Positions 1 through 18,710 are shown, numbered from the stretch's first letter. The stretch: DNA of 20,000 nt from Euglena gracilis (GCA_039621445.1 CP154954.1:10984670-11004669); one strand, 5' to 3'. Translations and numbers: made by a program. Notes: generated from the letters alone by a model not told the origin.

Positions 1-3
1 TAG

Positions 4-1962
4 CGGGTTTCACACCGAAATTCGGCAGTATGCATTGCCGATGATGCGCCAAATGTTCCAGAGTCGCGTTTTCATAACCCGGCTCTGGGTGCACATGCAC
101 CACCACCACCCGTGTCCCGAGTGTCACAATCCGCGATTCCGCGAATTGTGCCACCATTGGCCTTGTCCACAACCCAAACCCAGTTTTCGGATGAATCTCC
201 CATTACGGGAACCGAATTCGCGGAAAACATGGCGATTCTGCCAAGTCTCCACCAAGAAATCCATCATTCCATGCTTGTGCGTGGAATGAGCCAAACCCGT
301 ACACCGGGAGTGGGTCACATGTTGCATGCGCGACATACCCCCACACCGGAGAGTCTCCCTATTACGGGTGACCAACAGGGTTTGCGACCGGATTTCCGGT
401 ACCAGGATTCACCTTCACCAGAAATTTCGCGATTCCGACAAGAATCCGGAAAGGATACGCTTGGTGCTCGAGCGTACCCAGGCCCGAATCCACGGAATAC
501 CACCGAGGGCCAACGGGTTTTTCAGAAAGACTTCAAGGGCACCATCGCAATCGCGAACAAGGTGAAACCCCAGTGGGATGGTGATCCAACCACATGGAGA
601 CAGTTTTTCCGGGACTAGGAGTACTACTGGGCATTGAAAGGGACAACCCAGGACACAAACCCGGAGGTGATCAAGATGGAATTCATCGATTGCCTCCCTA
701 GGGATGAAAAGGAGCGCGCGCGACAACTCGTCATTCGCTACCGCGTTTCCTTTGATGACCTGGTGGAGCAATATGCTTCCACCAGTTCAAGTTTGGTCGC
801 TAGGATTACCCTGGAGACCAAGTGGCGGCAATGCGCCCCACCCGATCGCAAGTGGAAGTCCATTGACCTTTGGTATGCCAAATGGTTAGGACTTGCCGCT
901 GAAGTGGATGAACTCAGTGAAAAGCAAATGCGCGAACAGTTCGACGCTGTTCTCATGCATTTCACGCCTAGCCTCATCAAGGATATCCATCGTGAGGAGT
1001 TGGCGGGTAATGCAATGACTCTTGACCAACGCTGGAACTACGTTTCCAAGCAATTGAAGCTATCACAGCTTCTTGGTCAGATTCAATCCGCGTATACCGC
1101 ACACCCAACCGCTGGATTACCGGCTGGTTCGGTGAACGCAGTGCAAAAATCACCGGTTCCACCCGCTTCACCCACCACGGGATCGAAAACGCGATAGCCG
1201 CGTTCTTCGGACCAAGCCACGGATAAAGTGTGCTTTTTGTGCAACAAATCGGGACATATGTCTCGGGAATGTCCTAATCCTGAAGCGCGAAAGCGTATTC
1301 AGAGTCCGCGAGGCTCGACCTCATCACGAGGTTCGGGTTCCTCCGCGTTTTCACGCCAATCGGGCAATTCACGGTCATCGGGTCCCCGTTCCGGTGGTAT
1401 TAGCCCCCGGATCCCGTTCCGCGATGAGCGGAAACACGGTACCCCTCGGGGTAGGTCACCCGATGCCCCGGCCAAGACGCGTGATTCTCATCGCGAGACA
1501 TCGCGATCGCGTTCGCGAAGCGGATCATCTTCTTCGCGATCCTCATCGGGAAAACCCCGATACACCGGTCATGGTCGACGGGACACCCGGTCACCACGAC
1601 GGTCTGACGGGAAATCGGGAAACCGATCCCCCCGTTACCAAGAATCGCGACCCAAATCTCGGTGTTCGCTTTGTGGATCGAGTGATCACCACTCATCCAA
1701 ATGTCCGCGTTCTCGTTCTCCCCGCCCTGGCCAACGTCATCGCGGTATGAATCGCGGTGACAAGGGTCACTCCTCCAACCGCCATAAAGTCGGTTTCAAG
1801 ATATCTTGTTTGGAGGATGACACCCCGGCTTCGGGCAGGGAGGGGGATGAGACCACGGATACCGATTTCGACGAGGCCCGCATGGCGGTGCGCACGTTGA
1901 AATCCGTTTATACCTCTAAAAGGCCCATAGCCGGCTATTCGGCCGGTTCGGACCTGGAGTAG
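4..1962 (+). pseudogene. gag: Gag with two CCHC zinc knuckles, interrupted by in-frame stops; true start probably upstream of the window
   Basis: ORFs 112-618, 634-1197 and 1228-1962 share frame +1, which is open from base 4 and broken only by TAG at 616 and 1195. Gag-like WDGDPTTWRQFFRD*EYYW. CX2CX4HX4C knuckles CFLCNKSGHMSREC (1231-1272) and CSLCGSSDHHSSKC (1663-1704). Confidence 0.85.
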
Positions 1963-2045
1963 GGGAGCCCGAGGTCCGAGGGCACGGACCTCTGGGCTGA
2001 TGAACAGATGGAGGTAGGACCTGATCAACCCTGCCCCCCCTGCCC
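1960..2045 (+). promoter_or_regulatory. Candidate gag-pol stop-codon readthrough signal (UAG plus stem-loop/pseudoknot)
   Basis: TAG 1960-1962, GGG spacer, then AGCCC-GAGGTCCG (1966-1978) pairing with CGGACCTC-T-GGGCT (1985-1998). Loop GGGCA is complementary to TGCCC at 2032-2036 or 2041-2045. pol continues in the same frame. Confidence 0.6.
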
Positions 2046-2199
2046 ATCTGCCTTTCTGGTCGGTACCCGGAAAATTTTCGGGTCCCCCACCCCCCACTCC
2101 AACTTTCCGCTCGGAATGTTGTGCAAAGTAGGAAAGGGTTCATGGGAAAGCTGGCAAGAAAATGTATTTTCGCCAGGCCCTTCACTTTGCTTACCCCCC

Positions 2200-2559
2200 A
2201 TGGAACTTTTGGTCCAAGCGGAAATCAAAATACAAAATTTTTGTGCAAAAGTCAAAATTCTCATTGACACTGGTTGTCGCATTGCACTACTTTTTCGGTT
2301 TGGGTTGATACCAACCCCCCTCTTGGTGAAAGCCAAGAAGCCGATCAAAATTACGACGGCTGACAACACCCCTATGTGCGGTGGTGACTTGGGATGCTTT
2401 TTGGACATTGTCCTACCCCTCATCCCCAAGCACCACTCACACCCCCCCCAACCGCAAAATTTTCCGGATACCTGGGGATATGAATCCGGAATCCATGGTT
2501 CTGACGTAATTCTGGGATACCCCTTTTTACGTCAGCACCGGCTGGTAGTGGATTGCCAC
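2200..2559 (+). other. Retropepsin aspartic protease domain
   Basis: ILIDTGC (DTG at 2266-2274), flap-like ITTADN, and C-terminal DVILGYPFL (2503-2529). Confidence 0.9.
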
Positions 2560-3408
2560 TCCCACGGTTTGCGCACATCACCATTCTCCTCATTGCCCCC
2601 CAAACCCTCATCACCTGTGGCGTCAACCGCGATAGCCACCAATTTTTCCACACCGTTTTCGAAAACTTTCACCCCGTTACCAACCACACCAACCAACGTT
2701 TTCCACACCGGGTGTACCGAGAAAGTTCACCCCCTGCCCATTGACACACCAACGTCCGTTCCCCATGAGGCAGGGCAAGCGAGTAGCGGTACCCCCCTCG
2801 TTCCACTGGGTTACAAGACGAAAGCTCAAAGGCCTGAAGTTATAACGGTGTCGAGTAGTCGCCCAGCTGCACTAATACCCCGTTTTCCACCAGATGTATC
2901 GCTTTCAGATACATCTGTATACCCCCCAGCAGCTTCAAAAGCGCATCCCAACTTTTACACACACCCCCACCAGACCAACATGCGCGACCAGGACCACTAC
3001 TCCGACACTACCTTCCAATGTGTGCACTGAAGGAGAATTTCCGCCCAGCCAGATTTCGATTGTGGATGTCTAGTCCAAACACCAACACTAATCCCGATTT
3101 CGCGTAACCATACACTTGGTTGCGGATCGCAATGCGCGACCGTACATCAAGTGCTCCAACAACGAGGTATTGCCTTGTTGTTTGGGACCGCGAAATCCGT
3201 GTCACACACCTCCCCCACCTCCATCTGGCATGATATGGACTGGGTATGTACCCATCCAACCCATCAACCCTTGGGAATGCCCCTTGGGAGTGTGGATGAC
3301 ACACCCTTGACCTATGTTTGCGGATCCCTGAATTGCGTTACCGCTCTTCAACCCGCGAACCAGGTCGACACCTACGCGATGCGCGTATGGAACGCATTTA
3401 ATTTTGGT

Positions 3409-3813
3409 CAATACCGTATTTTGGAGGAATGGTTCTCCAAAATCGCGGCTTTGGCTGATTCCTTCGATTTGCCGTTGGAAATTGATGCGTTCTCATCAAA
3501 AGCGCATGCGCGCTTGTCGCGATATTGGTCGCGACATACCAACGCATTCCGTAAAATTTGGGGTGATACGGTGCTATGGATGCACCCTCCCCCAAAACTT
3601 ATTTCGGATGTGGTGGAGAAAATCCTCCGCGATGAAGCGCGAGGAGCTCTCTTCATACTGGTCAATCCGAATGCGGATTGGTTTCACCAACTATCCTATG
3701 TGTGTTTTCATTGGTGGGATTTACCCGCTGATGTACCACTATTTGAGGATTTTTGTGGTATATTATTACCACCTGTCAAAGAAATCATTTTTCGCGTTTG
3801 TTTCTTCGACGCA
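3409..3813 (+). other. DIRS/phage Dam-like N6-adenine DNA methyltransferase domain within Pol
   Basis: IDAFSSKAHARLSRYWS...NAFRKIW...LWMHPPPKLISDVVEKILRDEARGALFILVNPNADWFHQL follows the pattern I recognise from DIRS MT domains (IDLFAS..N.....F.S...DAF...W.....x-P-P..LI..V+.K+..E....IL+.P.W....WF..L). Motif IV equivalent HPPP at 3583-3594. Confidence 0.8.
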
Positions 3814-4014
3814 TTCGGAATATCCGATTTGCGTGTGCCAAGATACCTTGGTACGGATGGGGATGCCACACCCTCAACGCAGATTTCTGCGGTCATTGAG
3901 AGTGCGGACCAACATCCCAAGTCTTCTGATTATTGTTCGCGAATTGCTCGCGAATTCCATGGTGTACTGGATAACCCAGTTTACGCCTGCGACATCGACC
4001 CCGCGATTCGCGGT

Positions 4015-4970
4015 CCGTTCGGTGTTTGCAAAATCGAGCTCAAGGATGGCGCTAAACCTATGCACCGGAAATTCTTCCGTTGCTCGGGTGAATGCGAACA
4101 GGCTCTCAACGAGATGATTGAGAAGCTCATCCAGCGGAAGTGGATTATCCCTTCCAAGAGCGAGTGGACATCACAAGCTTTTGTGGTGCCCAAACCCGCT
4201 GACCAGTCTGGTCAGAAGAAGTGGAGACTGGTGCTGGATTACCGGTACCTGAACTCCCAAACAAAGGATGACCCCTTCCCGTTACCGCTGATCGAGGATT
4301 TGATCACAAAACAATCGGATAACCGGTTGTGGTCAATCTTTGATCTGGAAGACGGTTTCCATCAGATGCATTTGCATCCTGATTCGCAACCGTACACGGC
4401 ATTCGTGACATCCAAGGGTGTGTACCAATGGACGGTACTCCCCATGGGTGTTAAGAATGGCCCAGCCATGTTTCAACGCATGATCCAGTGGGTTTTGCGC
4501 GATTTACCGTTTGCTATGGTGTACATCGATGATGTACTGGTGGGAACCCAACCGCCATCCGCGAAATCGGGCGAGGATATCCTCGACCCGCATTATCGCG
4601 ATGTGCGCGCGGTATTATCCGCGTTCTAAAAGCATGTGCTTTTTGTGAAGGGTTCCAAAATGCACCTGTTTCGCAAAATTATTAAGTTTTGCGGACACAT
4701 CCTGAGCAACGGGCAGCGTAAAGCCGCACGCAGTAAGATGGAGGCCATTAAGAAATGGACTCCTGAGGTCATTAAGACCTTAACGCATTTAAAGGGATTT
4801 TTGGGATTAGCCCAGTACTACGCGATTTACATGAAAGATTTCGCGAAAATCGCGGTACCCCTAACCCGACAACTCAAAAATCGGACACCCGATAACGCAA
4901 AAGTCATTTGGGATGACCAAATGCGCGAGGCCTTGAATAAAATCAAGGACTTGCTCCTCGAGAACGTGGT
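4015..4970 (+). other. Ty3/Gypsy reverse transcriptase domain (with thumb/connection)
   Basis: WRLVLDYRYLN, FPLPLIEDL, FDLEDGFHQM, TAFVT, LPMGVKNGPAMFQR, YIDD (4522-4533), KFCGHIL, LKGFLGLAQYY. One in-frame TAA at 4627. Confidence 0.97.
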
Positions 4971-4998
4971 TCTCGATATCGCGGATCCATACAAACCG

Positions 4999-5465
4999 TA
5001 TGTCCTGGAGGTCGACAGCAGCGATTACGCTGTTGGCGGGGTTCTTAGCCAGCATAATGCGGCGAATGAACTCCGACCTGTGGCTTTCTTTAGCAGGAAG
5101 CTACAGGGCGACAACGGGAAGCGTTCACGGATTATCAGCTCTGCTGCAGAAAGCAGTCCGCAATTCCGCGCCCGAGTAGCTGCGCAAGGGAGGCCGACAA
5201 GGGATAGGACAGGGTTAAATGGGCATTCGCGAAAAGGAGAACTATGCCATTGTTGTTAATTCTCAGAAAGAAAGTCGCAGGGATAGCCAGCCAGCCTGGC
5301 CAGATACTGCGTGGTGGCGGATCCCATGGAGCCTTCACACTGGTTCCCGAGGACCTGAACAAGGCCATGTCATCAGTGGGCAGAAGATGCCGATAGCATG
5401 AGTTCTTGAGCCAGTTTAACCTGGTGGTAGTTTATACCCCAGGTCATACGCAAAAAGTTGCCCCC
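4999..5465 (+). other. RNase H domain, frame-disrupted
   Basis: LEVDSSDYAVGGVLSQ (D at 5014), RPVAFFSRKL, out-of-frame REKENYAIV and R*HEFLSQFNLVVVYTPG..QKVA. The usual ADALSR motif appears deleted at ~5462. Confidence 0.85.
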
Positions 5466-5701
5466 TGGTATTATCCTGGGAACCCGGATGAGGGTGATGC
5501 GACTTTTCATGGCAGCCATGAGGCTGACCAGTTCGCACGTCGATCCGACGCTGCGGACAACATGCTCGATTCACTACCGGTTTCCCGGGTGTATCGCAGC
5601 ATCGCCATTTCACCATTGCGTGGAAGGCGCCGGCGTGGACGCACTGCCGGACCCCGTCGCATTACGCGTACGGAAACTCCTACCCCCCTATTTTTCCGCG
5701 A

Positions 5702-6961
5702 ATGGGTTATTCGCGTGACCCTATATATAGTACCATTGTGAATAGACGTAGTAATGGTGAATCCATAGAGAGTTACTCTCTATCACCATTGCGGCTTATT
5801 TTCCGGAATGATTCTGGTTATAAATATTGTATACCCCAAGACCTGGTTGATGATGTGATTTTGAGCTATCACAACCATGGTCACCCTGGGGCCCCCAAAC
5901 TTCTTTCACTAGTGGGTCGCAGATATTGCACAACCCTGAGTGAAAAAGAATTATATTCGCGCTGTTTGCGAATTTCGCAACGGTGCCAAAATTGTCAGGC
6001 TGTAAAACCGCGCAGAGGTACCCCCCCTGGTACGATGGACTTTTTCCCCGTACCACCTGACATTTTTACGTCCCTCTGCATGGATTTTCTCGAACTTGAA
6101 CCTTGCAAAGGATCAGATGACAAAATTTACGATTACGTTTTTGTTGTCGTCTGTCGGCTGAGTGGGTACATAGTAGCCATTCCATGCCGGAAAGCAGGGT
6201 TGACAGCCCAAATTTTGGCATCCATATTCCTGGAGAAATGCATCTGCTTAATGGGTTTACCGAACGAAATCGTGAGTGATCAAGATCACTTGATCTCTTC
6301 GCGGTTTTTCACAACTTTGTGCGGTTTACTCGGCATTGAGCAGCATTTTTCCATTATATACCGCCCGAAAGGCAATGGTAGGGCCGAGGCAGCCGTGAAA
6401 TCCGTTGTCAATATGCTTCGCCTTTCACTGGCTGACTCGGGTAAGAATTGGTTATCCGTTCTTCATTGTATTTTTTACATCAATACCTTGCCAGGGTTGG
6501 TATTACCACACTCACCGTACAAAATTGTTTTCGGACGTGACCCTCCGGCCATAGGGGATATCCCCTCGGAGAGACCCGCCCGAAGTAGCGTCAGCTGTGA
6601 AACGTGGTTTGCAGAAGTGGAATCACTCCGCTCTGCAGTCCAATCACGTATCACAGAAATTCATTCCAACAAACGGAAATCGTTTTTGCAGAACTTCAAC
6701 ACACCTGTGTATAGTCCAGGTGACCGCGTGTGGGTACGGAATAACCGCACCCGCATGCAATCTTCCAAGCTAGATCCTCTTTGGCTCGGCCCATGCGAAA
6801 TTTTGGAGAGGTTAGGTAGTAGCGGGCGATATAAAGTTGCCTTGCCCAACGGGATTGAGGACGTCCATATGGACGACTTCAAACCGTACCTAAGCCCCCC
6901 AGACGGAAAAGCTATCCCCTGCCTATATTTCAAGCCCCGTTCCAGATTACCTGAAACGGAC
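5702..6961 (+). other. DDE integrase with HHCC zinc motif and GPY/F-like module
   Basis: HNHGHPG...[36 protein letters not shown]. Confidence 0.95.
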
Positions 6962-7110
6962 GACTTTGTGGTCGATAAGATAATAGACCACAAGGTCGAC
7001 AGGGGTGTGCACTACTGGAAAGTTCGCTGGAAAGGGTATGGGCCAGAGGAGGACACTTGGGAGCCAGCATCCAGTTTTGTTGGATATGTCCAACAGGATT
7101 GGAAGCTGTG
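6962..7110 (+). other. C-terminal chromodomain of integrase
   Basis: [10 protein letters not shown]...[18 protein letters not shown], with all three aromatic-cage positions (F, W, Y) present. Confidence 0.95.
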
Positions 7111-7207
7111 GAACAAGCGCAATAACATAGACATAAACATAAACACTTTCTGAAACGATTTCGTTTTGGAGAATGCGTGTGTTTTATGTGAATGTTTCGC
7201 GTTTATA

Positions 7208-7281
7208 CCCCCCCCTGCACTTCATTATTTCTCTATCTTTCTCGCAGAGTTTTGATTAAGATAGAAGCCTTGCTTTTTCAG
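7208..7281 (+). promoter_or_regulatory. Candidate 3' splice acceptor(s) for the downstream ORF
   Basis: Long pyrimidine tract ending ...tttctctatctttctcgcAG (AG 7246-7247) and a second, ccttgctttttcAG (7280-7281). The first ATG downstream of either is 7349. Confidence 0.55.
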
Positions 7282-7348
7282 TGCTCTCGCACTCAAAGCG
7301 ACTGACAACAAGGTTACCCTTAGTTGTCGTCGTCGTTCGGGTAGCATC

Positions 7349-10300
7349 ATGCTGCCTGGGCGCGGACCTGGACCAGGTCCACCATGGCCGCAGCCTTCTG
7401 GCGCGCCATACCCCCAGTACCCTCAGTATGCTGAGGCCCCGATTCCGGGTGCCCCACATGCTGAGAGGGTTTCAGCCCCGGTATTCGCCGCGGCTACCAG
7501 CAGCCGGTCCGCATATGCGGTACCAGATCCATCTGCCGTCCAGCAGCCGGCACCTCAGCCACCAGCGCAGCGCAGATCGCGCCTGCCCCCGTATGCGGGA
7601 GAGATGATCTTCCGCACTACGGAGACGTTGGAGCGGGCGATGCGTATGTGCGCACACCCCCCAACGGAGCCCTTTATGCAAGCCCTTTGGGATGCATACT
7701 GTGCTCAGTTGTTGGTGGTAGCCAACACCCCTGTGGCTCAGTGGTGTCCCTGCGGTCAAGCCCTGATGACAGGGAGACGGTATTTCTCGTCGGCATCCGA
7801 TTCCGGATTCGAGCCGGGTGAGACTATGATGGACCTGGGCGTGTATGTGCCGCCCATGCTGCAAACGCAGACGCCGGTGGGATCCCACACCGTGCATATG
7901 CGTGAGCACACGCCCCCACCGGTAGGTGAGGCTGTGCATGTCCCACCTGGGATGACGAGAAGTTTTGCTCGCCCGCCCTCGCCGCAGCGAATGCCGCCGC
8001 GCGAGCCGCCAGCGGAGCAATTTGTCTCGCGGTACGCGACGCACGCGGATTCCCCGCGCGGCGCACGCGTGCTCCCAGCCGGACAGTCGGACGTGCCCTC
8101 GGAGGCATACGTCCAACACATGTTCATGCACTGGATGCCACAGGCATCACCGGTCGTCCCTGTCCCGGGCGTTGAGCCACGGCGGCAAGTGGAGCCCATA
8201 GTGGTGGAGGATGAACCTCCCCGCCATGCTGCAACTCGACCGCCCAGTGCACCTCCTGTCCAACCCGGGGATGTCCCGCGTCGGCAGGACGCTCCCTACT
8301 ACCACATGGCACCTCCGGGAACCGAGCAGGATGAGCTTGCTCGGCATTTCCTGCAGGAGCCAGTATTCACGTCTGAAGAGCATCAGGCGAGGTATTACTC
8401 CTCGCTGGCCGCCCTTCAGGGCCGTGGATACACCCCGTACCATCCGTACCAACCGCAGCTGCGGGTGGCGACCCCGGTATTACCCGGTGAGCCCCCGGCA
8501 GGAGCGGCAGGATTACCTGCCACCCTGAAGCGCGATAGGGTTACGGAGAACCTTACCCCACAGCCCAGGCGACCCAGCCCACGGGACGCGGAAGGCGGTG
8601 TGGCAATGCAGGTGGAAGCCAGCCCGGATACCCCGGCTGGGCAACCACCGGCAGTGGCACAGGCAGCGATGAGCCGTCCTGTTGCCGCAATGCCACCGCC
8701 GATCCCTCCGGTATGGAAGGAGCCGCGACCCCCTACGCCGACATCAAGCCCACGCCAGGCTCCTAGCCAGCGCGCAGCCACGCCGTCACCGCGACGTGCA
8801 GCGGAACGGCAAGGTCCCTCCCCAGAGATGGAATGGGAAGGTACCGAACCGCCTCCTGCCGCACCGAGCGCCCGACCCTCTGGTATTCGCCAGACAGGGA
8901 AGGATAAAGGTAAGGCTGAGGGCAAAGTCAAGGGAGAAGGCAAAGGCGTGGCCGGCAAAGGTAAGGCTGAGGGCAAGGGTAAAGGTACAGCCCGTGAGGA
9001 GGAGGAAGAACCAGCAGAAGTCCTCTCGGACTTTGAGCAAATGCTCAGATTCAAGGAGGAGCTGGAGGACGAAGGCTGGCGAATGCAGCATGATTACCAT
9101 GTTGCAGGAAACCGCCCCGTCACCCCTCCGGAAGCAGTCATCGAGGTGGTATTACACCACACCGAGAACAGAGTCAGACAATTCCATTACGGAATTGACC
9201 TGTACGCCTTCGAAGGTGAAGGTGGCAGACCCTTGCTGGATGCCCAGCCGGGTTTCTGGGAACTCTGGTTTTGGCTGGGATACCCCTGCCAGAACTGGGG
9301 TCTCTTCAGCGACTCCACTGGCCGCAGTTACCTGCACCAGTTAGGATTTCGGGACCAGCATGTGTTGGCCCGAAGGCTGAAGGCAATCTTCGACTGTATT
9401 CACACAGTCGGGCCCCTCGGTGTGCAGTGGAAATACTACCCACTGAACCCCGACATCGAACGCCTGATCGAGGTGTTGTGGTGCAACAACCTCCAGGTGT
9501 GGCTGGTGAGCCATTACGGCTCCACCTTCCGCGTTAAGCGCGTTTCCCTGGCTTACCCACAGAGGTATGACCTCTGTTGTAAGTATTGCCGGCAGGAGTT
9601 TCCTGTCGACTTCTGGTGATTCGGCGTACGCGGAAGTCCTCCACCGCCTCGGGATAACCCGGGACTGGAGATGGGACGCCGCATGCTTATGCATGTGTGC
9701 CGCGACGCCCCGGATGTCCAGGGCAAAAGTCGCCGCGTCCATAAGCAGCGTATTTTTATGCTGCAACAGTTCTGGTGGCGAGCCTGAACGACCTATGTCA
9801 TGGAGGTGTATATACATCTCCGTGACCCCCAGGACGATAGGCCTGGTATGGAAAGCTTGCCACCAGACTACGGCGACCCCGTTGAGGGACCTCGTCGTCG
9901 TCGCGTTATCGCCGACCTGCGCCCCAACTGGCACCTGGCCGGGATAGACCTGGAGGAACATTTGAGGCGACAGTTTGGCGGTACCCTCGACAGGAAGGTA
10001 TTCCTCCAGCTGATGAATCACCCGAAGGCCATCCTCGACCTGGGTATGCCGATTCTGGCATGCGTGCAGGAGTTCGAGGACGGGTTTTTCGAGGTCTGGG
10101 AGGACACGCGTTACCGCAGCTTCCTGGGCCCGAACAGGCCTGCCAACGCTTGGGTGCAGCCATCATGGCCACCACCCTGGCCCAACAGCGCCAGTAGCAG
10201 TACGCTGGTCTTTTACAGGCTGGCGGATGCCCAGGGATGCCGATGGCACCCCGACGACCCTCGTTCGCCGGAGGATCTGCGCGCCTTCATCGCCCCAGAG

Positions 10301-12868
10301 GATGAACCTCTGGCGCGAAGGAGACGTGAGGCGTCAGTCGCTTCCACCACTGCGATTCCGCGGCGGGAGGAACGCGACCGCAGCCCCTCCGTCACCATAC
10401 TGGAGGCAGCGCCGCCGTCTCCGACAGGAACGGCTGTATCATTCGTCTCTGCCCCGCGAGCGGCAGGGGAACGATCGGTTTCCCCGGCCCCCGCGACGGC
10501 TCACGTCTGTCCACCGGTAGGTGGAGACCAGGAACTTCCTGAGGAGGAAGGTGAGAACGTGGAGGATATCCTCTACGCTGCTCTGCATGCTCCGGCACAG
10601 CCTAGGCCAGACACAGCACCCGCAGGGGATATACCTGTGGATGCTACGCCTGTTCCAACGGCTGAGCCTCCAGTCGAGGTGACTGGTATGGTCGTCGAGG
10701 ATATCCTCGAAGAACCTGCCAGTCCCACAGCACGCACCTCGTTAGGAGGCCGTGTGCTCGGCGCCGTGGTCACTGGCATTACTGCCGTGGCTGCTGCACT
10801 AACGCCACGAGGTGGAGGCGTAGCATCAAGCTCCGCCGCTGAGGTCGTGGAGACACCAGATGTCGGTGTCCCCACACCTCCGTCTCCGGCAGCAGTGCAA
10901 CCACCATCAGGGGATGAACCCCAGCCGACAGAGACATCTGTCGCACCGGCTACACCGGAGGATCAACCTCCCGTAGCACCTGCGCCAGCGGTTGTGGAGG
11001 ATCAACCTCCTAGACCGGATGTCGAAATGGAAGTGGAAGAAATACCCCCACGACCACCGACACCGCGCAGGGTCCCTGCCGTCCCGAGGACAATGGCAGA
11101 GTTTCTGGGAGTGCCAGCGCCTGTGGAAGCACCGATTCCGGTGACGACCACAGTGCCACGCCTCGTCGGAAAGGATGAACCTGCTCGGCGACGGCCGGCT
11201 GAACAACCCCAGGAACGAGTGCCGACCCCTCGGAGCGTCATGCGCGACCCAGCGGTCAGTATGCCCGCTTCGCCCAGACGGCAAACGTCTACTCCGGCAC
11301 CGTCGGCTCCTGATACCAGGAGTAAGCCGCAGGCGTCACCTCCTGATTCCGGGAGTGCGAAGCCGAAAGGAGGCAAACCGGGTGCTGCACCCTGTAAGCC
11401 CCCTTCCAAAGGCGGTGACGGGAAACCACCACCGAAAGGTGGCGCTGGAGGTCAGACTGGCGGACAGCCGAAAGGCCCTACGACAATGCACGACTATTCG
11501 GCCGTTGCATCGTCCGGGTACGGCCAGAGCAAACCGAAAGGTAAGGCTCGTGGTCGACAGGCCCAGTCTTCCGCCGGATCGACGGATGAGGAGCAGGACG
11601 AACCTGCTTCACCTCCTGTGTCTGCGGATGCCCAGCTCTGGACCCAGGATATCCTGACCAGACTCAGCACCGTCGAAGAGAGGACGAAGAAACTGGCTGC
11701 TATTAGGCACCAGAAAGGGTCACTGAATCGATGGATTCAGCCCCTCTTCGTCCGAGGAGAACCTTTCCACTATGCCCCGGAACATACCTGGACATTCTGG
11801 AACAGGCGCTTACCCAGAGTACTGGCACAGTACTTTGGCGAGGACTGCGTGTTGGATTTCCAGCACGGCACGTCCTTTGCCTGGACGTGCACCGTATGCC
11901 ACCATGTGCGGCATAACCAACCGCTTGTGCATGTGTGCAAGCGGCAGGTGCAACCCTCGTGGTTCCATCACAGGGCATATGTGCCGAACTGTGTGGCGCT
12001 CGTATGTGGCGAGTGCCTGAATGCCTGGAAGCACAGCTTGAACTACTCCTACAGTGAGAATGCTCACGACAGGGATATCCCTGCCTTGTGCATCAACTGT
12101 ATAGGAGGCAAGTTCGTGCAGACTGCTGATGGAGCAGTCACCACCATTGTCCCCCAGCACTGGGAGACACTGGAGAAGTGGAAGAAGGAGTACAAGCAGG
12201 TGGAAGGACGCCTGAAGCACTCCGACTTCAAAAAGGTAGAAAGCTACCGCCACACGGGAATGGCCCGTGACTTCCAGATCGACGCTGGGGCAATGCGCCT
12301 CGCCGTCGAGGAACACGCCAGGGTAAGAATGCCTTACCTCTGGACTGATGGCGACTGGGAGACACAGGTTTACCCCCTGTTCTCCAAGCGTCAGCATGGC
12401 GGATACGCCTTGCCACTGTGGCCTCCTGAAGAACACGACTTGGTGGACTTCAGAGGTTGGTTGGCGGCTGTATTACGGCCCCATACCGCAAGAGCTCGGA
12501 CAGCGAGGTGGATGTATGACATCAACTTCAAGCAGACCCCGGGGATGCCCCCGCAGGTGCCTGCGAATCACCCCCGGATGAATTACATCATCTGGCCGGT
12601 GATGCTGCCCAGAATTTTCTGGGAGCAGCTCCAACGGTATCTTCAGCATCATGCTGAACGTACCAGGGAGAAGCTGCCGGAAAATTGGATCAAGGACTGG
12701 GAGACCCCTTCCTTTGATGTCAACGATCCGGAGCTCAACACCATTCGGAGTGAATCAGCTCCGCCGCGTTCCCCACGCCAACTGGAGTTGGTTGAGGACC
12801 CATTAGGGGACCCCCAACACGACTACTGGCGTGAGGTCCGCGAACGTCCAGCCGATAAAGGCAGGTAA
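7349..12868 (+). pseudogene. Extra ORF of unknown function in the env position (~1839 codons, two in-frame TGA): Pro-rich disordered tracts, Trp/Cys-rich globular blocks, C-terminal 8-Cys zinc finger
   Basis: ORFs 7349-9619 and 9800-12868 are both frame +2. The gap translates FW*FGVRGSPPPPRDNPGLEMGRRMLMHVCRDAPDVQGKSRRVHKQRIFMLQQFWWRA*TTYVM, with stops only at 9617 and 9785. Could alternatively be two separate CDSs. Confidence 0.75.
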
Positions 12869-12902
12869 GGTGTCTGTCAGCGCCAATGCGGCGTCTTTCA
12901 GC

Positions 12903-12985
12903 ACCCTCGTCAGGTATTCGCCTGACACCCTGTTTGGGTATTCGCCCGAACAGCCCCTTTGAAGACCCTTTGCGGTATTCGCCGC
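12903..12985 (+). repeat. Three tandem hairpins with identical TATTCG loop
   Basis: GTCAGG-TATTCG-CCTGAC (12909-12926), CTGTTTGGG-TATTCG-CCCGAACAG (12930-12953), GCGG-TATTCG-CCGC (12972-12985). Each is preceded by or overlaps ACCCT. Confidence 0.85.
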
Positions 12986-13685
12986 TAGTAAGTTCCCACC
13001 GGGATGCTGCCATGTGCAGGATTCCGTGCGCATGCATGCACACCCCTCTCCGCTCTCCCCTCTCGCGGGCGTGCGACACGCAGCGCACAGGGCCGACGGC
13101 CCCTTTTCCTTTCTCTCTCTTTTCTTTTCGGCCGTTTGAGGCCTTAAGGCTGCCAGACAGCACAACTTTTCTGGCCTAAGCCAACCCCCCACTCCTCTCT
13201 ACTTTCCCCCCGCGGCAAATGCTGTCGCCGGCAGTTGGTTTTGTAGAGTAGGATTTCCTTTTGCGTGGTCAGGTTTGACTGGCCATGCGCCCTGCCCAGG
13301 TTTGACTGGTCAGAGGCCCCCTCCTTCCACACCCTCCCCATGGGTTTTCCTGGAATGCCCATGGACCCAACCCCAAGTGCCTTGGGCACACCCAAACTGG
13401 GTGGATGGGTTTGCTTGGCAAGGAAACCTGCCAGCCCCATTTTCCCCAGTGGGCTATAATATACTATACACCCATAAGCCACCGCAAAATAGGTGAAACC
13501 ATTTTGCGCGTTTTGGGCTTTTTGGGTCCCTCCCTTTCCGCCCCCCCCCCCTTTTTGAGTAGACCCTTGTGCGACGGAAAGGGCCCCTGTGGATGCGCCA
13601 GGGTGCACCTCCCACAGACCAGGTCTGTGTCCGAAATCCCTGTGGTCAGAATGCCTGGTCCAAAGGGGAAATCGGGCATAGCCCT

Positions 13686-13695
13686 GGGAGGGGGA
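13686..13695 (+). other. Polypurine tract (plus-strand primer)
   Basis: GGGAGGGGGA, followed by a 2-nt spacer and then TGTAC. Confidence 0.65.
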
Positions 13696-13697
13696 TG

Positions 13698-14002
13698 TGT
13701 ACCAGGCGTATGCTTCTGTCCCCCCCCCGTTGAGGAAGTTAGGATGGAAGCAGATCCTATTAGGATTTCCTAATGGGTGCCCCCTCTCTCTCCACAGGTG
13801 GTATTCTGTTTGTCTTTCCTTTTCTCCGGACCGGACTTGGTTATCCAGTCCGTCCTCCCTGCATTGCTCCGTGCTTTGCTTCTTGGGAAGTGGGAAAAGG
13901 GTTTTCACTGTTACTCTGATTTTCAGTTCCCAAGTAGGTGCGCCAAGGCGAAAGCGAAGGCTTTTGGGAATTGGGAAAGGGGAATTGGGAATCAGACGTA
14001 CA
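13698..14002 (+). repeat. Candidate 3' LTR (305 bp)
   Basis: Starts TGTAC 2 nt after the PPT and ends GTACA (5-bp terminal inverted repeat, TG...CA). Composition becomes AT-rich afterwards. No partner LTR in the window. Confidence 0.6.
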
Positions 14003-16513
14003 CTTGTATACCCGAATCAAAAAAATTCGGCATATTGCCAAAAAGATCATATTGAGGTGTACAACCGCAGAATTGTGCCAGGCTGCTGCCAATTCACAGA
14101 ACAACTGTGGTTGTTGTGGCTTATACCACTTTGAAAAACCGCAAATGAACTTTGAATGCACATAAAAGGATGGAACATTGTTCAAGTGCAGTGAAATTTA
14201 TCACTCTGTACCTTTCAGTACAATCAGAGGCATGATACCTCCAAAAGCAAAGTGTGTGTATGAAAAATTGTGGGTATCCCCATATTGCGCACAAGAAAAA
14301 AGGAACTATCACAAAAAATACACGGAAGTCAACCACTTCTATGATGGTGGTCTGGCAGGCATGTTCTGTGATAAGCGTGAACTCAATCGAGTTTTTTTTT
14401 TCGACAAGTTGGCCATATAGCCGTCACTGCAGTGGGTGGTGGCATATACCACCAAAAATTACTAAAAATCTCTATTTTTTTGCATAATTGCAAAGAAGCA
14501 CTACAACTATGCCTTTTGGCGTTTTACCGTTTGCGGTGAAGCTTTCAACTGAATAATCGACCTGTTGGTCAACAACGCATGCAATCTGTTACAGAGAATA
14601 TGCAGTTTTTCTGCACGCGTTAGGTTCATAAACTACATTTTTGCACCAATTGGTACTACAAGGGCTAGGAAAAGAACAAAAGCACATAGTGCCGATTGTG
14701 AAACAAGCCGATTGGCTTAAGAGCATTGGTACCATATCGGTATGCTACCACTATGTGGTTTTGGACTGTCCCATTAGGACTAACATCTCACCTAGAACGG
14801 TGACACTGCACACAAAAATCTTGTACGGCTATAAGTATTCCGCGTGAAAAATTCTGAAGGAATCTGAAAAATATTCACGTCGTGAGAGAGCCATAGGCTC
14901 AAAAATTGCACCACGATGGTGGAACGTAAGATATTTCGCCGAATAGCGATTATGGATTCATAAATTTCAAACTGGGAGTTGATTCTCCTGCGCACAAACT
15001 TCTCTATGAGAAAAATAACGGTATGTGCACACTTAAGTCATCTTGATCGATGGCCGAGAAAATGCATTGCGGTTCAAGCATTTTAACTGTCCAACAGAAT
15101 TGGGTGGCTATCGCCACAAATGATGCGGTAACGATAAAAGTGTGGATATCACCACTGAAAAATGAAAAATTTGCATAACAACAAATAAATGAAACATTCT
15201 TCGCATTAGAGGTATCCCACAAAAATTATAGTTTTTTGAAATGCAGCGCATACTGCATCACATCACTAGTATAATGAGCTATCCTCGCGTCAACAAAAAA
15301 AAGTTGAAATTGCACATGTACGCATATTGCGCACACGTGGTCAAAATCACATATTGTGACACTGAGTTCAGACCAGTAGGTTACAAACGACAAAAATGCA
15401 TGAGAAACGGGGGAACTGCACAAAACGACTAATCATCAATGAATATGGTGCTGTGACACGCACCATTTGAGGATTCGCTCGGAAATTTTGAACAGATTGC
15501 GAAATATTCGATGAACACGTGGCAATTGATCCGCATTCAGAAAATTTGCGGATGATCTGCACACGGAATCCTAAATGTGGGTCAAAAAAAGCTGGATTTC
15601 ACCATTTCTGAGGTATGGTTCTTATAAACCTTGCAGAATGACACCATTGGTGTTGCAAATGATGACCATTGGGTCCTCCGAATTATATCGGTAAGGGGAT
15701 CCCACTGAATGAAGCGGGGGGGGGGGGCAAGAATGCCGTTGGTGTGGTAAGCAGGAAAAAATACTGCAAATATGACAAAATCTCATCATTAATGACTATG
15801 CCACTGAGAAATACTGACTTTCATCGGATTTTTAGGGAAATCCCTATCAGGATTTAGGGCAGAAATGCAGATTCTGCGTCGAGAGTTGCATTTTTGTAAC
15901 CAAAAGTGCAACTTTGTTGCATTTTGAGTCATTTAAGACGGAAAATTTGTCAAGTGCACATAGTGCTTGCTGAGAGTGTCCAATTACACTGCATGTTTGC
16001 TTTTGTATAGATTTTGGGATTTGGGTGACTCATAACACCACATCACCCAAAAATATCGCAAAAAACCAAAATACACCTCAAAATACAAGTAAAACATGTC
16101 TATGACATGTTGAACAAACGAAAAATTGCCATTATCAGCATATCGCTTTACATTCCACTCTGGCATAGTGCCTCATGGTGACTTCCATTAGTGATATGAG
16201 TGCCAGAATAGGGAAAAATAACCAAAAAAATTGCAGAAAATAAATGATTTAAATCAAAATTTGCACATAAGTGCTCCTAAAAATCATTCTAGTGAGTCGA
16301 AATGACTCCAAATTGTGGGCTATAGCCCTCTGAACTGTACGAGGCCTTATAGCCCATACAGAAGGGGTAATGGGCAGAATGCTGCCAAAGGTACTAAAAA
16401 ATGGCCATTAGCCAATCTGTTAACCAAAGGTAATTAGCCATCAGAAACGATGTGGGGAACAGTATAGAAGCCTTTCAGGCTGATTTGCAAGTCTGGTACA
16501 CGATCGTACAAGA

Positions 16514-16847: not shown

Positions 16848-18710
16848 TTATCGGAGAATGTGCTTGGGTTGCAGGAGATGGAAGACTTCGCGTAATAGGG
16901 CGATTGCGACTTTCTGGTAAATATCTGCCTCCTTTAATTCTCGTTCCGCCCCCTGTTGCCAGGACGAGGCGCGTTTCGCCACGCGGCTCAGGGTTTTGGC
17001 TGTCTCGGGCCCCATGCCCGCCCACGTTCCCAGGGCGAAGGGCGTGAAGCCCCAGCCTGCTTGCTGGCATGGGATGTTGTACTTCTGCTTTTTGGCCTCC
17101 TCCCTTCTCTTCAGGAAGGATCTCCACCGTTCGCGGGTGGCAGTGTGTTCAGTCGCCTGCCATCCGTTGCAGACGGTGACATCCAGCGCTGTCGGCTTCC
17201 CGTCAGACCAGCAGTCTAGGAGGAGATCGGCCGGGCGGAGGTGGCTATCTCGGGCCGTTGGCAGGGAAACCTCCTTCTGCACCCGCTGTCCGCTGTTGGA
17301 CAAGGTTTGGAACAGTGCGTCCTGAACAGCGTTGTGGCGGGTGGCAAAGTTATTCCTGCGACAGCAAAGGAGGTGGTCACCTTCCTTGTCCAGGGGCTGG
17401 TTGCATCCCGTGCATGGTTGGCTGACGTCGTTCAGCACCAGGAGACCCAGCCACCACTTCAACCCCAAGGTGTACTCTTCGCTGTAGAAAGTGGTGTGGG
17501 AGTTGTTTGAGGGGGTTGCTGCCATCCAACCATGCCCGAAACCTGTGGCCTGTTCGAGGAGGCGGTTCTTGTCCCGGGGCCGCGCCTGGTCCACCAGGTC
17601 ATCCATCGTCTTCTTGCCCAACTCGTGAGTCCACCACTGGTGCGCTACCTGAGCGTCGGTGACGGACGTGATGGTGGATGCGGCCTTCTCGATTTTGGCG
17701 GCGGCAACCTCCCACGCCGTCTGTGTGGTGTCCGTAGACGCTGGGTGGTCAACTGGGATGCCCAGGACGGTGATGCCTTCCCCTGGGGTCCAAGGGACGA
17801 CTTGCATCCTCTCACAACTCGGCGTACTCCTGGCTCTCGGGCCCCACATGACGCACTTCTGCAGGTTGAGGCCGAGCCCTATTCGATGAGACTCTTGCAT
17901 CAAGAAACGAATGCAGTGCTCAATCCGGTCTGGGGTCCCGACCAGCAAGCCGTCGTCCAAGTACCAGCTGTTCCACAGCAACTGACCATCTTTGGTGATC
18001 TGTTCCAGTAGAGGCTGTAGCGCGAGAGCGAACCCTATGGGGCCCAATGGGCAGCCCTGGTGGGTGCCTCTCTGTGACAGGATCGAGCGACCACCACAGA
18101 ACAAGGGAACGTGCCCACTGTACGCGAATCGCAGAAAATTGAACAAGCTGGGGGTGCGCGTTTCAGCCTCCGTCAGGATCGCCCCTCGGTCCACCGTGTT
18201 GAACGCACTGGAGAAGTCCACCTGGAGAGAAACCCAGGGCGATGTGTCCGCCAGCTGAATGACCAGGTGTTACATACCTAATGCGACGGCCTCAGCCGCG
18301 TTTCGTACCCCAACCCCAACTTGGGTAGGGGCGAGGGTTGCGACCTAGGATCTGGCGTTTGGTGTCTGGAGCAAGGCTTTCCCCACCAAGCGACGGATGG
18401 TTTCCCCAACCGCCACCGGACGTACCCCGTTATCCTTTTTGCGGAGCGGCGTTAGGTTCGCACAGCACCAGGCCGCGGCGTGGTGGGGCGGTAGCTGGCC
18501 GTCCACCAAGGCTTGAGTCAGCAGTGCGAGGGCAGTGATCAGCCTTGCTCCCCGACCTGGTCTCCGCAGGCAGTCTTGGAGGTGGCCTGGTCGCAACCCA
18601 GATGGCGCCGGCGCCGATCCCCGTGGGAAGCGACGGATGGCTTCCTTCAATCTGTCCTCCCAGTCCGGGGTGTGGTTCTCGGGGAAAGGGCGGACGTGAC
18701 GCGGCAGGCG
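16848..18710 (-). pseudogene. RT / zinc finger / restriction-like endonuclease ORF, truncated, two nonsense codons, internal deletion
   Basis: One frame: GSAPAPSGLR, GVRPVAVGETIRRLVGK, QVGVG, VDFSSAFNTVDR, GTHQGCPLGP, YLDD (17952-17963), CTGC-x9-HLLCC, RHNAV, RPADLL..ALDVTV..KKQKY. Stops TAG 18345-18347 and TAA 18270-18272. Confidence 0.92.

Follow-up and report, generated by a model that had tools for sequence, protein, structure and literature searches.

Long post-pol reading frame of an abundant chromovirus-like Ty3/Gypsy element in Euglena gracilis, probably a single non-Env accessory gene

Env-like third open reading frames (ORFs) occur in insect errantiviruses and in plant Athila elements (Ty3/Gypsy), where they lie after the integrase and before the 3′ long terminal repeat (LTR). 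Extra post-pol genes in LTR elements are already known from CERV and from the TRP28 ORFs. CERV, of the Ty3/Gypsy-type element Cer1 of C. elegans, is described in the available part of its report as a family-less accessory protein beyond gag and pol that is produced from a spliced mRNA of the element and, within the nucleus, targets the genomic RNA of Cer1 (PMC10309623). Plant Retand elements have a region of several kilobases between pol and the 3′ LTR which, in the accessible portion of the source, is said to contain conserved ORFs with a TRP28 domain, possibly nucleic-acid-binding and regulatory (PMC11963269). For Euglena, the accessible text of a preprint describes Ty3-like elements with Dam, DNMT, and chromodomains, named DAM-LTR and EpiLTR (10.64898/2026.05.21.726589). 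Here, we describe a 20,000-nucleotide (nt) stretch of Euglena gracilis DNA (“the window”) that contains a decayed Ty3/Gypsy chromovirus-like LTR retrotransposon and, directly after its pol, a gene that we refer to by the working name ORF-X (7349–12868, + strand, 1839 codons), interrupted in this copy by two TGA codons. We consider it probable that ORF-X is one non-Env accessory gene of about 1839 codons belonging to this abundant element and that its product is intracellular.

ORF-X has the same position as the env-like ORFs of errantiviruses and Athila; it differs in that its ends show neither a signal peptide nor a C-terminal anchor by hydropathy and in that it matches no Env family. It resembles CERV in being an extra family-less protein of an LTR retrotransposon, a likeness in description, but it is far larger and has Cys/His clusters that are absent from the available description of CERV (PMC10309623). 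With Retand, the element shares a long region between pol and the 3′ LTR that carries an extra conserved ORF; in the available portion of the Retand report, however, these ORFs run antisense in plant elements outside the chromoviruses, whereas ORF-X is in sense orientation in a chromodomain-bearing euglenid element (PMC11963269). DAM-LTR comes from the same organism and is likewise Ty3-like with a chromodomain, and in the window pol a Dam-like stretch separates the protease-like motif from the reverse transcriptase (RT). This Dam match stays below the family cut-off (20–22 vs 28.1 bits), and the DNMT domain that EpiLTR requires gave no family match in any scanned ORF or read-through (Pfam). 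The accessible preprint text does not mention a large post-integrase ORF (10.64898/2026.05.21.726589), and we found no description of ORF-X among the papers listed in literature searches on Euglena LTR/gypsy elements and on extra ORFs of LTR elements. At 5.5 kb, ORF-X is about as long as the part of gag-pol seen in the window (1–7153).

Frame +2 of ORF-X is a real long coding frame, far from chance expectation. Both large ORFs of the region, 7349–9619 and 9800–12868, lie in this frame, and translation of 7349–12868 encounters only two internal stops, TGA at 9617–9619 and TGA at 9785–9787, before the terminal TAA at 12866–12868. This corresponds to three stops in frame +2 versus 22–64 in each of the other five frames, and 1000 mononucleotide shuffles gave a mean of 56.6 stops with a minimum of 33. 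The counts confirm an earlier interpretation made without database searches (the sequence-only reading), which had described two ORFs in one frame, split only by these two TGA codons. The same reading had called the region more GC-rich than the integrase region, and this was borne out both by overall GC content (0.57–0.655 across ORF-X vs 0.48–0.52 over the integrase) and by GC content at third codon positions (GC3; 0.63, and 0.685 in each of the two globular blocks described later, vs 0.49 for the integrase). The composition changes at about position 7300.

ORF-X belongs to a very abundant element and is repeated as heavily as the integrase end. This was seen by aligning contigs of four public runs (X1, X15, X16, and X18) to window positions 7000–14500; X18 is an RNA library of an environmental sample, and the presence of contigs there was not used to draw conclusions on habitat or transcription. 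In X1, 40,681 contigs were placed on this range, and the summed word depth, which shows repetition and not copy number, was 1.03 million at the integrase end, 0.58–0.88 million over ORF-X, and 1.1–1.2 million over 13275–14027, dropping past 14028 to 0.25 and then 0.03 million. Individual contigs bridge the borders of the gene: X18 record 25 (2402 nt) extends from upstream of 7000 to 9092, X16 record 17 from upstream of 7000 to 7337, and X15 record 16 (2182 nt) from 11340 to 13522. ORF-X is co-oriented with pol, directly follows the integrase-chromodomain, and precedes the 3′ end of the element. The sequence-only reading had named a single-copy host gene unlinked to pol as an outcome that would count against it; in Euglena gracilis, ORF-X is high-copy and joined to the integrase end. 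One X1 contig represents a rare derivative nearly devoid of ORF-X, in which 7411 is joined to 13965 (6553 bases skipped, with five other letters in between; depth 161).

The ORF-X protein alternates between Pro/Ala/Glu-rich and Trp/Cys-rich parts, as the sequence-only reading had proposed. Composition bins are Gly/Lys/Glu-rich at residues 501–600 and aromatic/Cys-rich at residues 601–1000 and 1401–1800, and other bins are Pro/Ala-rich. A Pro/Ala-rich low-complexity N-terminal region without a Pfam match (7349–8896) is followed by a Gly/Lys-rich basic patch and then an acidic run (8897–8986). The patch contains the motif KGKAEGK twice, at 8906–8926 and 8957–8977, as had also been noted; this repeat was not called at the DNA level by Tandem Repeats Finder. 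Globular block 1, which is rich in Trp, Cys, and aromatic residues, was delimited by composition (9014–10300). It is separated by a Pro/Ala/Glu-rich linker (10301–11629), with a mildly hydrophobic segment at 10742–10798 and a Gly/Lys/Ser-rich basic patch at about 11249–11548, from globular block 2 (11630–12865), which comprises a predicted long helix, a Cys/His cluster, and a conserved C-terminal domain. Several motif coordinates, including the ends of the first basic patch, were counted by hand, with a possible error of one codon. The two blocks are not detectably related to each other (BLASTP best E 1.2; hhalign probability 0.2).

The location between pol and the 3′ LTR and the Cys-rich composition raise the question whether ORF-X encodes an Env-like membrane or fusion protein, and one 19-residue window, at residues 1132–1150, does reach a Kyte–Doolittle value of 1.6. 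That window is the best of the whole protein, but it lies in the middle linker, is the only hydrophobic segment, and has a Pro in the sibling P0005. Neither a hydrophobic N terminus nor a C-terminal anchor is present, as none of the eight best 19-residue windows of the hydropathy scan lies at either end. Moreover, low-complexity sequence rich in Pro, Ala, and Glu makes up over half of the protein, its Cys residues occur in CxxC/HxC pairs typical of metal sites, and Pfam returned no family, Env included, at E ≤ 10 for six pieces covering the whole of ORF-X. We therefore give an Env hardly any credence, in agreement with the sequence-only reading, which had seen a gene in the env position with neither a signal peptide nor a membrane anchor and little resemblance to Env.

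Homologues were searched exhaustively with HMMER, using 9266–12865 with X at both stops as the query; all homology searches covered parts of the protein downstream of the N-terminal 640 residues (7349–9265). Among 1.84 billion representatives, 23 proteins were found at E ≤ 1e-3. The best match, P0002, is 98% identical over 230 residues and is labeled by its source as a Euglena gracilis transcript, as are P0008 (40%, block 2) and P0018 (42%, block 1). The remaining relatives come from ENA, JGI, and Logan contigs of 0.6–3.7 kb. Block 1 is represented by P0020 (27% identity in one alignment, 34% over the matched stretch), P0015, P0009, and P0018, and block 2 by P0014, P0024, P0007/P0010, P0004, P0013, P0011, P0019, P0023, P0008, and P0021, at 25–40% identity. 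Other searches returned little: a word-indexed protein search with the ORF2 region 600–1022 gave no match, and one with profile A1 gave no longer-length match and, at similar length, only P0007 and P0002. No match was found in metagenome contigs to alignment A3 or P0024, in viral contigs to the window protein or A3, or in prokaryote genome contigs to A3.

In block 1, a CxxC…HxC motif and possible metal site (9578–9700) spans the first stop, with CKYC at 9578–9589 and MHVC at 9689–9700 on either side, as stated by the sequence-only reading; its Cys and His residues are shared by all homologues with coverage at these positions (C744 3/3, C747 3/3, H782 4/4, and C784 4/4). Block 2 contains a ten-position cluster of the form C-x2-C-H…H-x-C…C-x4-C-x2-C…C-x2-C (11888–12100), a candidate two-zinc cross-brace. 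Conservation is high both in its first half (C1514 6/7, C1517 7/7, H1518 6/7, H1528 6/6, and C1530 6/6) and in its second half (C1548 7/8, C1553 7/8, C1556 6/8, C1581 8/8, and C1584 8/8). The most conserved motif, PG(M/L)PxQ…N(H)P..N..IWP(V), lies further downstream (12539–12601, end counted by hand), and eight of its positions (P72, G73, P75, Q77, N81, P83, I89, and P91) are invariant in all seven sequences of alignment A2. Block 2 relatives end about 30–60 residues past a W..P.F(D) motif. Altogether, about 20 fragmentary relatives share the ten-position cluster and the PG(M/L)PxQ…NHP…IWP motif.

With contigs and homologues at hand, the two in-frame stops can be assessed. Stop 1 (TGA, 9617–9619) is private to the window copy. 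Essentially all contigs of all four runs carry G at 9617 (659464.5 of 661033.1 depth in X1, in 58 contigs; 11.8 of 11.8 in X15; 11.7 of 11.7 in X16; and 48.8 of 48.8 in X18), so that the codon is GGA (Gly) in other copies, and both homologues that cover it, P0015 and P0020, have Gly in the context …DFWGF…. The suggested relation of this stop to CGA or TGG by one transition thus needs correction, since the change from GGA is a transversion. At stop 2 (TGA, 9785–9787), the diverged homologue P0009 (57% identity) has Trp, and P0020 has Gln in a less certain part of the alignment. The comparison with sibling copies that the sequence-only reading had put forward for both codons is therefore clear for stop 1; positions 9785–9787 are absent among the 40 variant rows, out of 566, that are listed for close copies.

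Two in-frame stops only 168 nt apart could also mean that the ORF pair represents two separate genes or that 9617–9787 is an intron, and the lack of a stop 2 difference among the listed rows for close copies fits such an arrangement. However, P0015 and P0020 continue from one stop position to the other as similar, uninterrupted protein that includes the conserved HxC, and hence this stretch is not an intron. Other copies lack stop 1, and conservation of both stops throughout the copies, which the sequence-only reading had named as a refuting outcome, was not observed. No joint across 9617–9787 is seen among the 15 of 105 joints listed. Two genes or an intron are accordingly very improbable, and the view of the sequence-only reading that the two ORFs are one gene is upheld by the Gly at stop 1 (in both homologues and all four runs) and the Trp at stop 2 in P0009.

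Given a single gene, the next issue is whether it has been maintained. Of the 40 variant rows listed out of 566, 38 are differences among copies inside ORF-X; third codon positions account for 20 of these 38 (binomial p 0.011) and synonymous changes likewise for 20, which hints at purifying selection. The terminal stop (12866–12868) is TAA in the window and TGA in most other copies, through 12867 A>G (636875.6 of 645829.8 depth in X1; all depth in X15, X16, and X18), and the end of the ORF is thus kept. The retention of the frame and motifs down to 25% identity, even within Euglena gracilis, points the same way, judging from the aligned sequences.

These observations bear on the possibility that ORF-X is a host or foreign coding sequence that is passively carried and amplified, with no role in the life cycle of the element. 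Such an origin would fit the GC and GC3 values above those of pol (0.685 in the globular blocks vs 0.49 in the integrase). It would also fit the finding that 67 consecutive linker residues match a portion of P0006/P0017 at 90% identity, as identity with these host-like proteins implies exchange with cellular transcripts. Passive carriage would, on the other hand, not be expected to preserve the frame together with the Cys/His positions and C-terminal motif in lineages at 25–60% identity, two further E. gracilis transcripts (40–42%) among them, or to produce differences biased to third positions with a retained terminal stop. In addition, the join that removes the gene (7411–13965) was seen in one X1 contig only, at a depth of 161 versus hundreds of thousands. 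We consider passive carriage unlikely, although it is the alternative to which we give the most weight.

As to P0006 and P0017 themselves, stretches of 67 and 44 residues in these proteins share about 90% identity with the ORF-X linker at about 10853–11053 (+), and one of the two has a weak match to a response-regulator receiver domain. This suggests, from sequence comparison, that a cellular transcript contains a piece of the element, either exonised or as part of a chimera.

The protein belongs to no known family, as the sequence-only reading had concluded; nothing was found in Pfam, PHROGs, sequence profiles of the PDB, or Foldseek. In Pfam, the 13 A1 members yielded four matches, each confined to one member and at E ≥ 0.022, PHROGs gave no match, and the PDB sequence profiles returned none for A1 and one chance row for A4 (E 0.92). 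Of the earlier proposal of an acquired intracellular accessory protein of unknown family, the unknown family therefore stands; a possible acquisition is suggested by the composition difference and a possible intracellular location by the non-hydrophobic ends.

For the Cys/His cluster of block 2, there are nevertheless structural leads. RING and ZZ domains call for eight conserved Cys/His ligands, and the cluster offers at least that number in CxxC/HxC pairs, with ten candidate positions conserved in 6/8 to 8/8. The AF2 model of the 412-residue block 2 was matched by VIA-wide only through its long N-terminal helix. The model of the 136-residue Cys/His part gave 36 rows, of which nine have titles that name RING or ZZ; the top row is the RING of Slx1 (Z 3.3, root-mean-square deviation 3.2, 64 aligned), and all rows lie at Z 2.0–3.3, below Z 5 and thus in a range where chance arrangements are common. 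ESM Atlas neighbors were mostly RING-type zinc-finger clusters, with scores of 0.78–0.82, under the 0.9 that separates firmer matches from leads; a query with the part of block 1 before stop 1 yielded no usable match. Taken with the ligand pattern, these leads suggest that the most likely fold is a two-zinc cross-brace module, and the fold and language-model comparisons weakly indicate that the cluster is of the RING/ZZ-like type.

Several points, beyond these low VIA and Atlas scores, weigh against the interpretation that we favor. Canonical RING fingers have 2–3 residues between the second and third ligand pairs, and the cluster has about 20. The RING, ZZ, and PHD models of Pfam (zf-RING, zf-C3HC4, ZZ, and PHD) matched 0/13 family members at E ≤ 1, the mean predicted local distance difference test (pLDDT) values of the AF2 models are low (57.7 for block 2 and 61.8 for the Cys/His part), and neither model had a Foldseek match at E ≤ 0.001. 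A near-fixed difference at 9785 might have shown among the listed rows, as that at 9617 did; stop 2 might thus be common to close copies, in which case the active lineage might carry a split gene. No splice or trans-splice junction was seen. Finally, the accessible preprint text reports that LTR expression in E. gracilis is low or undetectable (10.64898/2026.05.21.726589).

If ORF-X is indeed a non-Env accessory gene, its intact product would have about 1839 residues, in which two folded modules rich in Trp and Cys are accompanied by two Gly/Lys-rich basic patches and by long Pro/Ala/Glu-rich spacers that are probably disordered. The C-terminal module may bind two zinc ions via the ten-position Cys/His cluster in a RING/ZZ-like cross-brace, and the basic patches could provide nuclear targeting or affinity for nucleic acids. 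The protein would then act as an intracellular accessory factor of the element, whose binding partner could be a protein of the host, chromatin, or nucleic acid of the element itself. Translation could occur from a sub-genomic mRNA that is cis-spliced or spliced-leader trans-spliced at polypyrimidine-AG sites 65–130 nt upstream of the ATG at 7349.

A bolder version of this scenario, which we consider unlikely, is that ORF-X represents a new effector family. It would be a giant disordered scaffold with a novel cross-brace zinc module, similar to a ubiquitin ligase or acting as a reader of histone tails, expressed from its own trans-spliced message and engaging host chromatin or silencing together with the chromodomain and the Dam-like domain. 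If true, this would contribute to an explanation of why LTR elements occupy between a fifth and a third of the Euglena genome.

The composition shift at about 7300 could also indicate that ORF-X stems from another mobile or viral entity, such as a giant virus or a second retroelement, and became nested in or recombined with the element, making the latter a chimera. In the language-model comparison, the clusters with the best scores consist of hypothetical and RING proteins of Nucleocytoviricota (0.81–0.82), and giant-virus-like integrations and chimeric or nested elements are reported for E. gracilis in the accessible part of the preprint (10.64898/2026.05.21.726589). However, these Atlas scores are at chance-prone levels, and no viral contig encodes a relative. 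ORF-X is also co-oriented with pol, flanked by the spacer and 3′ region of the element, and bridged by contigs in other runs, and the window shows no additional ends or repeats on either side of it. A chimeric origin is thus improbable in our judgment.

An accessory gene of this size matters for the genome as a whole. In the available portion of the assembly report, the E. gracilis assembly of 2.37 Gb consists of LTR elements to about 22–33%, with unclassified repeats making up another third (PMC11252322). Because the 5.5-kb gene travels with one of the most abundant families, it would account for a sizeable share of the genome. It may also be the source of many “hypothetical” transcripts, given that three E. 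gracilis transcriptome proteins match. Recognizing the family could improve repeat and gene annotation in Euglena and flag exonised fragments in host genes, as in P0006 and P0017. More generally, euglenid Ty3/Gypsy elements appear to carry a large third gene of an uncharacterised family, kept through deep divergence, which may provide a handle on the success of such elements in a heavily methylated, trans-splicing host.

The element itself is represented by a dead copy, in view of six stops in gag-pol, a change of frame before the integrase, and the two nonsense codons in ORF-X. Its first part (1–5259, +, frame +1) encodes, in this order, gag, a protease-like region, the weak Dam-like stretch, RT, and RNase H, with stops at 616 (TAG), 1195 (TAG), 1960 (TAG), 3028 (TGA), 4627 (TAA), and 5257 (TAA). 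A zf-CCHC in gag scored above the Pfam cut-off (E 9e-6), the gag-pol translation contains a protease-like LIDTGC motif, and RVT_1 and RT_RNaseH_2 were also matched. The second part (5528–7153, +, frame +2, ending with the TGA at 7151) is an integrase with H2C2 zinc, core, and SH3 domains and a C-terminal chromodomain, matched by Integrase_H2C2, rve, SH3_Tf2-1, and Chromo (E 3e-10, residues 480–516 of the 541-residue integrase frame). The order of pol on the + strand is hence RVT_1, RT_RNaseH_2, and then Integrase_H2C2/rve/SH3. No direct repeat of at least 40 bases, and hence no LTR pair, is present in the window, which begins inside gag; the copy ends at 14006.

The Dam-like stretch covers 64 residues (3445–3636, +), with E values of 1.7e-4 to 4.9e-4 for Pfam Dam. 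Dam-type proteins have a (D/N)PP(Y/F) motif; where this motif would be expected, the stretch reads HPPP. At the chromodomain end, some contigs in all four runs match just the 100-base piece 7016–7117 (+), with the same foreign sequence on both sides, so that another repeat family shares only this segment.

Between the integrase and ORF-X lies a non-coding spacer (7154–7348, +). In-frame stops in this region are at 7151, 7253, and 7262, and copies differ by indels at 7208 and 7249. The spacer contains two polypyrimidine tracts ending in AG, at 7220–7247 and 7268–7281, which, from their sequence and their position before the ATG at 7349, are candidate 3′ splice or trans-splice acceptors.

Downstream of ORF-X, a 3′ non-coding region includes the probable start of the 3′ LTR (12869–14006, +), with purine runs at 13662–13671 and 13686–13695 followed by TG. 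Loose contig ends lie before 13653–13667 in X1 and X16. The region also contains imperfect short direct repeats (12880–12990 and 13268–13312, +), with ggtattcgcc present three times and caggtttgactgg twice. Other copies run past 14006 with shared sequence in all four runs, which shows that the window copy is cut at 14006; the continuation sequence of these copies has only one match in the window, with three mismatches, which is chance level. Positions 14005–14007 form the junction of two repeats, as in X1 the AT-rich sequence from 14005 on is likewise preceded by a shared continuation of its own, and both repeats seem to be cut at 14005–14007. Finally, a fragment of a second retroelement was found at 16848–18221 on the − strand, where a 457-residue ORF with a partial RVT_1 match (E 1e-10) lies in a GC-rich island surrounded by sequence of 40% GC.

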